64,000 bases of DNA. Origin: an uncultured delta proteobacterium. Its GTDB lineage: Bacteria > Desulfobacterota > Zymogenia > Zymogenales > Zymogenaceae. Of the stretch, positions 16,145-19,297 are shown piece by piece. The DNA lies in assembly GCA_963809875.1 (NCBI GenBank), contig CAWELC010000011.1, positions 1,275 to 65,274 of the forward strand, read 5' to 3'. The notes beneath the pieces are model-generated. The model had not been told where the DNA came from. It ran no database searches and saw only the letters and a program-made list of their open reading frames with translations. Made by a program: the position numbers and the translations under genes. Positions within the stretch are counted from its first letter, which is position 1. Each line of letters opens with the position of its first letter.

Positions 16145-17302
16145 CTAGATGTATCCGTCCATCAGGGAGCGGACCTTGACGGCCGCGTCTCTGCCAACTG
16201 GCGATGCCCAGCCGCTCCCGTATCCGCTCGGCCCTCGTCCTTATTTCCGGGTCCGAGATATCCCCGACGCCCCGGGCAAGCCCCGCCCTCCGGGCCAGCA
16301 CGAACAGGAGACGCTCGGACTCGGGCAGGCCCAGATACCGGTCGACGGCGGCAAGCAGTTTCTCCTTGTCGTCGGGGAGGCTTCCCCTCGACTTCCTCCA
16401 GGAGATTGAGGATATGGTCCGATACGATCGTGCTCGAAATCCCCGAGAGCCCCTCGATCAGAAGATGGATCTCGGCCGCTACCTCGTCGTCGGTCAGAAG
16501 CTCGAACTCGCCCGATTCGACGGCCTCCCACAGCGGCATGACCCGGTGGACGTGCAGCGACCTCAGCCGGATGAAATGGGGGTTAACGGCGACCAGCACC
16601 CGGGCGGTCTCCTGTCGCGTGTTCCTTCGTCCAGCGCTTCCCCCCCAGCCCCGGCATGACGTACTCGGAAAGCTCCAGCCCCGCCTCTCTCGACGTTTCG
16701 GCCGCCGCGGATGTGCTGATCTGCGGTCGTCCCCTTCTTCATGTATTTCAATACGTCGTCGGCGCCGCTCTCCATCCCGATATGGACGCGGGTCAGACCC
16801 GCCTCCCTCAGGGACGCGAGGTCCTCCGGCTTCATCCGGGCCACGGTGGACGATCGGGCATAGGTCGTGATTCGGCTGACGTGCGGAAACGCCCCTTCAG
16901 ATGGGAAAGGACCTCTGCCACCTGGGCCGGCTTCATGACAAGGCTGTCGGCGTCCTGAAGAAAGACGCTGTGACCGCCCGAGAAGAGCCAGAAGGCGACA
17001 TATTTCGCTCCCTGCCCGCCGCCCACGGCCCCCGAGAAGACCTCCCGGGCCACGGCCTCGGTCACCTCGCCTCCCTCGCCCATGCGCCGGGAGAGGGCCC
17101 TGATCTGGTCTGCCGCGGCCGCCATGGTGTCGATATCGCCCTTGATGTCGTCGACGTCGCGGATCGAAAATCGCTGCCCCTTGTAGACCGGGCAGAAGGC
17201 GCACTTGTTCCAGGGGCAATTGCGCGTCAGGCGCACAAGGAGGCTCTTCGCCTCGCTCGGCGGACGGATGGGACCCTGTTCGAAACTCGCTGAAAACACC
17301 AT
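16145..17302 (-). CDS. Radical SAM protein (several apparent frameshifts)
   Basis: EQGPIRPPSEA, CPWNKCAFC (CxxxCxxC), FLQDADSL, HIGMESG, NPHFIRLRSL; likely end VRSLMDGYI*. Confidence 0.85.
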
Positions 17303-17341: not shown

Positions 17342-17362
17342 TCAGAAGGAATTCGGGATTCC

Positions 17363-17446
17363 GAGTTTTGGGGACACCATACTTAATTCCGATTTCTCAA
17401 CTTGATCAAAGTATATAACGAATTAAGTATGGTGTCCCCAAAACTC
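17363..17446. repeat. REPIN-like inverted-repeat doublet, left
   Basis: GAGTTTTGGGGACACCATACTTAATTC (17363-17389) and its exact reverse complement (17420-17446), 30-nt spacer. Confidence 0.95.
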
Positions 17447-17475
17447 TTGACTCGTCGTAATGCTTTGTATATATT
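17447..17475 (+). promoter_or_regulatory. sigma70 promoter of the transposase, probably leaderless
   Basis: TTGACT(17447-52)-N17-TATATT(17470-75); ATG starts 7 nt after the -10 box; no SD. Confidence 0.7.
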
Positions 17476-17481
17476 CGTGTC

Positions 17482-18126
17482 ATGGCCAGACTGGCACGAG
17501 TCATCGCGCCCGGCTTTCCTCACCATGTCATCCAACGCGGCAACAGGCGCCTACAGACCTTCTTCTCCGACAGCGACTACCGGGCCTATCTTTCGTTTCT
17601 TTCACTCTACTGCGATAGATACTCTGTTGAGGTATGGGCGTATTGCCTCATGCCGAATCACGTCCACCTCGTCGCGATACCCCATGACGAACAAGGGCTG
17701 CGACAGGCGGTCGGCGAAACACATCGTAACTATACGCGTCTCGTCAATGCGCGGGAGGGATGGAAGGGGCACCTCTGGCAGGGACGTTTCTCGTCCTATC
17801 CGATGGATGAGCGGTACACGCTGGCCGCGGTAAGATATATAGAGACAAATCCCGTGAGGGCGAATCTTGTTAAACGGCCCGGCGATTGGCTGTGGAGCAG
17901 TGCGGGCGCGCACTTAAGAGGGGAAGTTGACGGTCTTGTAGTAAGATCACCCCTCTCGGATATGGTGGGCAATTGGAGCGACTTCCTGGCCGAAGTAACC
18001 GATTACGGCAGGGAGTTTCGGCGGAATGAAAACACCGGTAGACCTCTCGGGTCAAGGGAGTTTGTCGGCCGGCTGGAAAAGGAGCTCGAACGTCGGTTGC
18101 ATAAGATGAAAACCGGCCCAAAATAG
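17482..18126 (+). CDS. REP-associated tyrosine transposase (RAYT/TnpA-REP, Y1 HUH family)
   Basis: MARLAR..PHHVIQRGN, YCLMPNHVHL (HUH), LWQGRF, RYIETNPVRA (catalytic Tyr), WSSA, GRPLGS. Confidence 0.93.
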   Translation: MARLARVIAPGFPHHVIQRGNRRLQTFFSDSDYRAYLSFLSLYCDRYSVEVWAYCLMPNHVHLVAIPHDEQGLRQAVGETHRNYTRLVNAREGWKGHLWQGRFSSYPMDERYTLAAVRYIETNPVRANLVKRPGDWLWSSAGAHLRGEVDGLVVRSPLSDMVGNWSDFLAEVTDYGREFRRNENTGRPLGSREFVGRLEKELERRLHKMKTGPK

Positions 18127-18133
18127 GAATTAA

Positions 18134-18218
18134 GAATTAAGGGGACACCATACTTAATTACCACTTCTATTTGTCTAAACTGAAGGTTTACTAATTAAGT
18201 ATGGTGTCCCCTTAATTC
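18134..18218. repeat. REPIN-like inverted-repeat doublet, right
   Basis: GAATTAAGGGGACACCATACTTAATTA (18134-18160) and its exact reverse complement (18192-18218), 31-nt spacer. Confidence 0.95.
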
Positions 18219-18235: not shown

Positions 18236-19216
18236 TTAGACATAGGGCCGTCCGTTTTCCCCGTACACCCGGCATCCGGGAAACGTAAGGGCAAAGCCGA
18301 ACCAGCGCGAGACGAGCTGCATCGGCCGGGGGGTGAAGAGCTGGTTGCCTTTTTCGTCCCGCAGTACGCCGTCCCGAACCACCTCCCCGCCGGGTAGCAC
18401 GATCTCGTCTCCCTCCCGCCGGGCCGAGGCGTCCTCGATGAAGAGCGCCGCGGGGATGTTCGATCGTGGATCGAGGTAGACCAGGATCCGCCTTCCCCCA
18501 AACTCGTCGATGATGAGGCCGCCCTTGTCCTGGATGACCTTCTTCGGGTAGTAGACGGCCGCCGTGTCCGACCAGACGCCCAGCCCGATCTCCCACCGGG
18601 GCAGACGCCGGTCCTCCTTTCCCATCGTCGATTTGGCAAGAGGGACCAGGAACCACCCCGCCCATCGGCGCATCCGGTCGAAGAAGCCGGACATAAGGCG
18701 CTCGAGGATGGATTGCCTCCCGACGGCGATCCGCGCGTCCGGGTGGGACGCAAGCGCCGAGGACGCCGTCGTATGCAAAAGGGGCGATATCGAAAGGCGC
18801 TTTCCGGCGAGCTTGCCGTGGACGCACTCGCCCGTCATATGGTCCCACCACGAGCCGGTCTCGCGGTCGCCGATCAGGACCATCCCGTTATAGGTCCCGG
18901 CCACCCGGAAAGAGAGCGGCCTGCCGTCGACTTCCGGGGTCATGACCACCCCGGTGTTGCAGGAGGGTCAGAAGAAGACCCCCCAGGCTTTGCCGGCGAG
19001 CTCTCCCTGGGCGACGTGGTAGTAGGACATCTGGGAGGTGAGCAGGACGATCGCCCCGCCGCCCCGCTCGACCACGAGGACGGGGGTGTCGGCCCTGATT
19101 TCCCCGGTCTTCAGGACGTCGGAAAGCGGCCGGGTCTCGCGGACCCGAAAAGGCCGGATCAGGCCGCCGCCGGCGGTGATGACCCGCGTGGGGTCGAACG
19201 CCGCGGTCACGGTCAT
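18236..19216 (-). CDS. DUF3179-domain probable selenoprotein (TGA at 18970-18968 read as Sec; 326 aa)
   Basis: ATG 19216 after GGAGG; ORFs 18968-19252 and 18236-18949 are in frame; reads GVFF-U-PSCNTGV; GTYNGMVLIGDRETGSWWDHMTG and RWFGFALTFP resemble DUF3179. Confidence 0.85.
18934..18954 (-). promoter_or_regulatory. Candidate bacterial SECIS element
   Basis: mRNA hairpin CCGGGGU-GGUCAUG-ACCCCGG; apical loop starts with G, 20 nt after the UGA. Confidence 0.7.
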
Positions 19217-19297
19217 GGGTCTCCTCCGTAATGTACGGTGCCCGAGCAGCACGGGCGCGTCCCGGGACCTTTCGTAGCGCGCCTTCGCGGGCGGGTC

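Follow-up and report, generated by a model that had tools for sequence, protein, structure and literature searches.

A probable TIRtron in an uncultured delta proteobacterium: a Y1/HUH nuclease gene between REPIN-like repeat doublets

Results

The DNA analysed here (the window) is a 64-kb stretch of the + strand of contig CAWELC010000011.1 (positions 1,275-65,274; assembly GCA_963809875.1) from an uncultured delta proteobacterium of the Zymogenaceae. It contains a gene for a Y1/HUH tyrosine nuclease that stands between two inverted-repeat doublets, and this module, its repeats and its relatives are the subject of this analysis. The assembly as a whole (G000) comprises 3.77 Mb in 12 contigs and is 89% complete.

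The open reading frame (ORF) occupies positions 17482-18126 on the + strand, starts with ATG and runs uninterrupted for 214 aa. An inverted-repeat search returned a pair of 27-nt arms on each side of it, 17363-17389/17420-17446 on the left with 30 nt between the arms and 18134-18160/18192-18218 on the right with 31 nt, and both pairs were 100% complementary. The arms share a 19-mer core, which occurs in four exact copies in the window, two on the + and two on the - strand, against a chance expectation of 0.02 (100 shuffles, none of which got to four); no further copy was found in the window, even when three mismatches were allowed. A first-pass annotation of this DNA had described an intact gene of the REP-associated tyrosine transposase (RAYT) type, REP being a repetitive extragenic palindrome, bracketed by four cores in two perfect pairs with no other core in the window, and that description was borne out. 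The features are as follows.

17363..17389, + strand: outer arm of the left doublet, 27 nt, with the core GGGGACACCATACTTAATT on the + strand and a 5' end of the GAGTTTT type
17390..17419: spacer of the left doublet, 30 nt, hairpin loop
17420..17446, - strand: inner arm of the left doublet, the perfect complement of the outer arm; the -35 box starts directly after it
17447..17481, + strand: predicted sigma-70-type promoter, TTGACT (17447-17452), 17 nt, TATATT (17470-17475), 6 nt, ATG
17482..18126, + strand: Y1/HUH tyrosine nuclease gene of the RAYT/TIRYT type, with H60-V-H62, Y119 and Y-x-x-x-N-P
18134..18160, + strand: inner arm of the right doublet, GAATTAAG...CTTAATT, self-pairing in a 7-bp stem
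18161..18191: spacer of the right doublet, 31 nt
18192..18218, - strand: outer arm of the right doublet, with a TTAATTC-type end, the type of the right arm in the chimeric doublet of the related genome G002 (see below)

When folded as single-stranded DNA (ssDNA), the left doublet forms a long hairpin of -29.8 kcal/mol (z -9.95) and the right one a long hairpin of -28.5 kcal/mol (z -8.86), neither value being equalled in 200 shuffles. The first-pass annotation also had each arm of the right unit able to fold by itself, with a degenerate version in the left arms. A single arm of the right unit does form the 7-bp stem (-3.2 kcal/mol, z -5.1), and a single arm of the left unit showed no significant fold (z -1.6, 14 of 200 shuffles at least equal). 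The arms start with GAATTAAG or GAGTTTTG and none begins with GTAG, so the 5' GT[AG]G of canonical REPs is missing, as was claimed. A search against Rfam gave no match at gathering score, only generic hairpin-like ones below threshold. The absence of tnpB was confirmed as well: the doublet-bounded unit measures only 856 nt, so the gene cannot fit inside it, and next to it lie, on the opposite (-) strand, a radical-SAM-like gene on one side and a DUF3179 gene on the other.

The protein matches the Pfam family Y1_Tnp (PF01797) with E 4e-13 and 49.9 bits (cut-off 23), and all 43 aligned homologs match it too. With the NCBIfam equivalog model REP_Tyr_transpos (NF047646) it scored 64.7 bits, below the cut-off of 80; it is related to the canonical RAYT, but is not its equivalog. 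The AlphaFold2 model of the protein (pLDDT 91) found its best fold match among PDB structures in E. coli TnpAREP (4er8_A; Foldseek E 1e-8, TM 0.74), followed by the TnpA proteins of ISDra2 and IS608 (2xm3, 2a6m), and TnpAREP 4er8 was also the closest solved structure by sequence (E 1.3e-4). These Foldseek alignments span about 158 columns and leave the C-terminal tail unmatched. With the HUH motif H60-V-H62, a single catalytic tyrosine (Y119) and a predicted HUH fold, the protein has the features of the superfamily. In the 43-sequence alignment H60, H62, W99, Q100, Y119, E121, N123, P124 and W138-S139-S140 are invariant, as is the C-terminal motif G186-R187...G190, and the C-terminal tail carries a conserved TGRPLG. 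The Y-x-x-x-N-P signature of TnpAY1 class 2 is present as Y119-I-E-T-N123-P124, its Y, E, N and P being invariant. By motif comparison in the same alignment the protein fits subclass 2.1, or group 1, through N59-H-V-H62, W99-Q100, YIETNP (family consensus YVELNP) and W138-S139-S140.

Among the three copies of the genus dN/dS was 0.10-0.12, with dS saturated in two of the three pairs. Invariance of the HUH motif and the tyrosine under purifying selection would argue for retained catalysis. Among sequencing runs, no RNA run lists the sequence, and four DNA runs do, with small shares of 0.05-0.08.

A homolog scan with one genome per species returned 513 relatives, and the best 80 of these loci were analysed. 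They are 54-67% identical to the window's protein and come from many phyla (ten named phyla among the 43 rows of the tree), and the closest named homolog record is that of a Candidatus Zymogenaceae bacterium. An inspection of homolog flanks had been proposed together with the first-pass annotation; the 13-mer GGGGACACCATAC was found at up to two mismatches in 69 of the 80 loci, so the homologs do have the repeats. Both flanks were readable in 75 loci, 42 of which carry non-GTAG terminal inverted repeats on both sides of the gene, the arrangement that characterises a TIRtron or TIRYT, while 16 have the repeat only upstream, 6 have it only downstream and 11 lack it. Among the 58 loci with an upstream copy, 35 have it end 41-43 nt ahead of the start codon, and the downstream inverted copy usually begins 14-40 nt past the gene match. 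Most relatives have single repeats; gene-flanking doublets recur in a Caulobacterales locus (L080).

Chance similarity or an assembly artefact is an explanation of negligible probability. The assembly is incomplete and in 12 contigs and the neighbouring genes look frame-split, which would suit an artefact, but four exact 19-mers stand in the window where 0.02 would be expected, and the same architecture recurs in independent assemblies of many phyla.

The association extends to the promoter. In the homologous loci the upstream repeat joins a TTGAC -35 box directly and a -10 box follows 16-18 nt on. In 26 of 79 loci the promoter scored at most 3 mismatches out of 12, whereas 1.4 loci would be expected from shuffles, and in 20 of these 26 best-scoring loci 6 nt separate the end of the -10 box from the start codon. 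The window's own promoter has 2/12 mismatches and that of a paralog on contig C9, which has the same layout, 1/12. Motifs of the Shine-Dalgarno kind were found in 9 of 80 loci, none of them before the window's ATG. Since TATATT ends 6 nt before the ATG and no Shine-Dalgarno motif precedes it, the sequence predicts a leaderless or near-leaderless mRNA for the window gene, with an inferred start site.

A hairpin in each arm was considered as a feature of the whole family and rejected. Covariation among 167 distinct repeat copies from the 80 loci is confined to the pair -4:+16 (T:A 77, A:T 40, other 50), which covaries equally with the unpaired column +13, so the signal reflects a subtype and not structure.

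Two further observations concern the repeats of relatives. Many loci (L035, L039, L051, L055, L067, L090, L101, L107 and others) have, about 20 nt further upstream than the main copy, one or two extra partial direct repeat copies, consisting of the repeat's 5' half (GGGGACA...) or of the preceding 7-10 nt. The Magnetococcales loci L075 and L076 have dense motif arrays near the gene, with 8 and 13 matches in about 3 kb, a sign that the repeat family may be much larger there.

In the window's own genome the count of the core, which had been suggested as a check, gave 36 matches at up to two mismatches against none for a reversed control. At up to four mismatches there were 45 matches, forming 19 inverted doublets and 7 singles, and one extra divergent doublet adjoins the C9 paralog. 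There are thus about 20 doublets in the genome, each about 70-85 nt long and intergenic in position (examined in five regions). The canonical arm is GAATTAAG-GGGACACCATA-CTTAATT, and the spacers of the 19 doublets, at 20-32 nt, are conserved far less than the arms. The 27-nt arms are perfectly complementary in 12 of the 19 doublets despite the existence of at least six arm variants, so changes in one arm are mirrored in the other. One asymmetric doublet variant was found three times, in both orientations, which indicates that whole doublets are copied. Inverted pairs with a short spacer and a strong ssDNA hairpin, dispersed over the genome, are what characterises a REPIN (a REP doublet forming a hairpin), although the copies are few for a REPIN family. 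Y1_Tnp genes number only two in this genome, both in the order doublet-gene-doublet. The paralog on contig C9 shares 68% identity with the window's copy and has the layout doublet, promoter, gene, doublet; its doublets are of the CAATA variant, the other variant of the repeat being CCATA.

The doublets also cluster pairwise, 7 pairs lying within 5.5 kb where 0.54 would be expected (0 of 5000 random placements got 7). Such paired doublets surround gene sets of 1-5 kb (C2:138088-142617, C6:325801-327143, C6:341012-346374 and C6:420288-426197). The C2 segment is an island of low GC content (44%, with 62% on either side) that carries a split AAA_13 ATPase, and a search of four relatives gave no DNA match to this segment, while the cargo at C6:420-424 kb is largely missing from the same locus in G001 and G003.

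The comparison sample consisted of 41 genomes, including three congeners (G001-G003), a member of another genus of the family (G005) and members of two other families of the phylum (G014 and G031); completeness is 93% for G001, 91% for G003 and 88% for G005. Matches to the core numbered 33 in G001, 33 in G002, 19 in G003, 10 in G005, 11 in G014 and 12 in G031, and in the remaining 34 sampled genomes 30 had no match and 4 had one to three. Close full-length homologs (at least 57% identity) are present in G002, G014, G031 and G035. Outside the window's family, five or more core matches were found only in G014 and G031, and both hold close homologs. The tree that had been called for was built as a quick IQ-TREE run of 43 rows, in which the window copy groups with the C9 paralog and the G002 copy in a single clade (SH-aLRT 96).

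The congeners also show what has happened at the two sites. At the window's site the doublet after the radical-SAM-like gene is kept in G001, G002 and G003, and the GAGTTTT-type outer-left arm occurs at the orthologous site in all three. In G002 a single chimeric doublet, followed directly by DUF3179, exactly replaces the doublet-gene-doublet of the window; its left arm is of the outer-left type, its right arm of the outer-right type, and there are five mismatches between the arms. This is the product expected of recombination between the flanking doublets, by which the gene would have been deleted. In G001 and G003 the left doublet is decayed, and everything from the doublet end to past a hydrolase gene is missing. 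At the site of the C9 paralog the module has an ortholog in G002 (79% nucleotide identity), a solo chimeric arm is left in G003, and G001 retains a decayed remnant. As read from BLAST coordinates, about 8 of 20 repeat sites of G001 are syntenic with a repeat of G000. From the syntenic sites and the loss footprints, both genes appear to be old residents that are being lost, not hopping.

Inspection of an empty radical-SAM/DUF3179 site, another proposed check, was successful in part: the gene-less site with its chimeric doublet was found in G002, but exact insertion boundaries could not be taken from empty sites, as G001 has only about 75-83% nucleotide identity and its intergenic DNA misaligns (e.g. 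at L112). Because this DNA does not align cleanly, no target sequence can be derived. At the C9 paralog's site in G005 (L141, G005:C16:120240-120900) two doublets surround an unrelated Cys-rich ORF of about 130 aa.

These data bear on whether the locus is an active element of the IS200/IS605 kind that moves as a repeat-gene-repeat unit. It has the Y1_Tnp fold and catalytic residues of such elements and inverted repeats at both ends, its relatives are spread patchily over phyla as horizontally moving DNA would be, and group 1 was rated the most insertion sequence (IS)-like RAYT group after group 6 in the available text of Bertels 2017 (PMC5581495). However, IS200/IS605 elements occur in near-identical copies, often with tnpB, whereas this genome has two copies that are 68% identical, with none near-identical. 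Both copies sit at sites shared with congeners under a dN/dS of about 0.1, tnpB is absent, the ends are symmetric instead of asymmetric subterminal hairpins, and the differences between congeners are explained by deletions that left chimeric repeats. Mobility of the unit, one of the two alternatives in the first-pass annotation, is therefore highly improbable, and the other, a domesticated system that by analogy would process ssDNA, fits better.

Discussion

Genes like that of the window have been described before. In the text available to us, Di Nocera 2013 (PMC3733652) reports RAYT-like genes flanked by terminal inverted repeats, named TIRYTs or TIRtrons, whose repeats share GGGGWSAS at a constant distance from the gene and belong to families that are moderately abundant in some genomes and often occur as dimers. 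According to the parts of Quentin 2018 (PMC6006769) that we could draw on, most TIRYTs fall in TnpAY1 subclass 2.1, which equals group 1 of Bertels; it has NHVH, W[EQ], YIELNP, an SS tail motif and C-termini resembling a helix-turn-helix (HTH), a median length of 238 aa, and no REP-like sequences reported. For group 1, the accessible text of Bertels 2017 gives flanking 16-mers that occur about 12 times per replicon, and the available part of the preprint by Bertels and Rainey states a REPIN association for groups 2 and 3 only.

Since the window's core GGGGACAC agrees with GGGGWSAS and its protein with the motifs of the subclass, the class is one already catalogued. The proposal of a distinct new repeat class is accordingly not upheld, since a match to a catalogued family, as far as the available texts of PMC3733652 and PMC6006769 describe it, removes the novelty of the repeats. 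The term TIRYT is little used in the literature. The exact 13-mer string gave no literature match in text searches, which do not reach sequences inside figures, and this clade and its repeat may already be listed among the published examples.

Likeness to the TIRtrons, as set out in the available text, extends to a Y1 gene with non-GTAG terminal inverted repeats, the GGGGWSAS consensus, dimers, and a similar gene distance, the 41-43 nt found here being as constant as the class would have it. The locus differs in that its core is longer (13-19 nt, compared via the GGGGWSAS consensus) and was followed over at least ten phyla, that the gene-flanking repeats are themselves doublets, and that a leaderless-type promoter adjoins the upstream repeat; the word 'leaderless' does not occur in the available text of Di Nocera 2013, nor in that of Quentin 2018. 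With subclass 2.1, or group 1, it shares NHVH, WQ, YIE(T/L)NP, the SS tail motif, the low copy number and the patchy distribution across phyla, whereas it has a population of about 20 doublets, for a subclass that in the available descriptions has neither REP-like sequences nor a REPIN association.

The REPIN-RAYT systems of groups 2 and 3 (E. coli TnpAREP, Pseudomonas fluorescens) resemble the locus in their intergenic hairpin doublets, in a low-copy, vertically inherited Y1 gene, in the footprints that remain after gene loss and in having the nearest solved structure (4er8). They differ in that GTAG is absent here, the population is about 20 instead of tens to hundreds, the single repeat makes no convincing palindrome outside the genus, and the NCBIfam RAYT score is below cut-off. 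The TnpA proteins of IS200/IS605 (IS608, ISDra2) have the HUH/Y1 fold and catalytic residues in common with the window's protein, but that gene is not multicopy, and the enzyme carries Y---NP in place of their Y---Q motif (motif classes following the available text of Quentin 2018).

We therefore favour, with a probability of roughly 0.75, the reading of the locus as a TIRtron, that is, a REPtron-like module made up of a vertically inherited, single-locus TIRYT of the group 1 or subclass 2.1 type, with a short tail, together with its cognate repeats and REPIN-like doublets. It draws on the locus anatomy, the fold and catalytic residues, the gene-repeat association, the repeat family, the synteny and the loss footprints observed above. 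The REPtron-like character named in the first-pass annotation is retained in it, as the cognate repeats are scattered over the genome and accompany the gene across phyla. Because the class is known, the locus opens no new category; its additions are modest, namely a REPIN-like population of doublets, a site and promoter conserved across phyla, and a series of footprints left by gene loss.

A mechanism can be outlined by analogy. The protein would recognise the conserved core GGGGACACCATAC, nick ssDNA and rejoin it via a 5'-phosphotyrosine on Y119 with a metal held by H60 and H62, and the 27-bp doublet hairpins could present the site when the DNA is single-stranded. Such nicking and rejoining may occasionally copy or correct doublets. 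As the upstream repeat touches the -35 box of the leaderless-type promoter, binding there is likely to repress transcription of the gene as well. On this reading the gene no longer transposes and is lost via recombination between the flanking doublets.

Several points weigh against this reading. A C-terminal HTH (Bac_DnaA_C, HTH_23 or HTH_28) was found in 0 of 43 members, searched with Pfam at E up to 1, and the protein has 214 aa against the median of 238 aa given in the available text on the subclass; this could be because the tail is not obligatory in 2.1, since subgroup 2.1.2 is described there as heterogeneous in its tails (Quentin 2018, PMC6006769). Repeat binding and cleavage are assumed from E. 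coli TnpAREP and IS608 TnpA, and no biochemically studied member of the clade was found in the accessible literature. With true terminal inverted repeats the motif changes strand from one end to the other, unlike at the ends of IS200/IS605, and such ends are not obviously suited to a strand-specific ssDNA enzyme. The aligned repeat copies lend no support to a hairpin in each arm beyond this genus. G001, G003 and G005 have 33, 19 and 10 core matches but yielded no close homolog; the best Y1 protein in these genomes has 36% identity and is of a different, 320-aa type with other repeats. Finally, G002 keeps a gene of the paralog type, yet only 2 of its 18 doublets have perfect arms.

The last two points would be expected if the repeats were chiefly host elements, such as operators, terminators, or recombination or nucleoid sites, two of which the gene keeps as promoter-operator and terminator, the doublets spreading or persisting without its catalysis. 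The fixed distance between the upstream repeat and a conserved promoter also agrees with this, as does the pairing of doublets around variable gene sets in regions that are absent or rearranged in congeners. On the other hand, the HUH motif and the tyrosine are invariant under purifying selection, which would argue for kept catalysis, and a downstream copy in inverted orientation at a conserved distance is what the ends of an element would show. Outside the window's family high copy numbers are found only alongside the gene, and an asymmetric variant in both orientations indicates the copying of whole doublets. We consider the host-element explanation unlikely.

An extension of the TIRtron reading is speculative and, on the present data, doubtful. 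It holds that GGGGACACCATAC serves both as the operator of a leaderless, self-repressed promoter and as a processing site, that it founded a genuine REPIN-like population whose arms are kept symmetric by its own enzyme, and that paired doublets bound the gain and loss of cassettes. Perfect arms are indeed present in 12 of 19 doublets in G000, compared with 7 of 43 in the three congeners without the window's gene (4/16 in G001 and 1/9 in G003, both with no gene, and 2/18 in G002). Gene presence as the cause of arm symmetry was nevertheless set aside as ambiguous in view of the value for G002, which has a gene. If this extension were true, group 1 would have a REPIN-like population, contrary to the literature.

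The favoured TIRtron reading makes the locus a clean natural case of a nuclease of the group 1 or subclass 2.1 type, a class reported to be without REPs or REPINs, amid hairpin doublets. Its recognition motif is kept in at least ten phyla, with a fixed distance to a conserved promoter, and four related genomes present the stages of loss as an intact module, a chimeric doublet, a solo arm and a decayed remnant. It could therefore be a convenient system for studying the binding and cutting targets of these widespread enzymes and whether the enzymes maintain their repeats.

The 320-aa proteins mentioned above are represented by L021 (G001:C5) and L022 (G003:C6), Y1 proteins with an NHYH motif and, by eye, a DnaA_C-like tail. 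They are flanked by a different repeat containing AAGGGGTCAA, and are a second TIRYT type that is not cognate with the window's repeat.

Some details of the window's surroundings may be added. A partial tandem duplication of the arm's 5' part stands at 18121-18141, immediately ahead of the right doublet (GGAATTAA GAATTAAG), and the direct repeat between left and right sides reaches 13 nt past the arms with 77% identity. The flanking genes (16162-17302 and 18236-19252, both on the - strand) appear split. On the left, a Radical_SAM Pfam match lies in ORF 16563-17219, and a Cys-motif ORF without a Pfam match (16832-17302) is in another frame; on the right, the DUF3179 ORF 18236-18949 begins at profile position 74 of 292, with a separate ORF (18968-19252) upstream. 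These splits could be frameshifts, pseudogenes or assembly errors.

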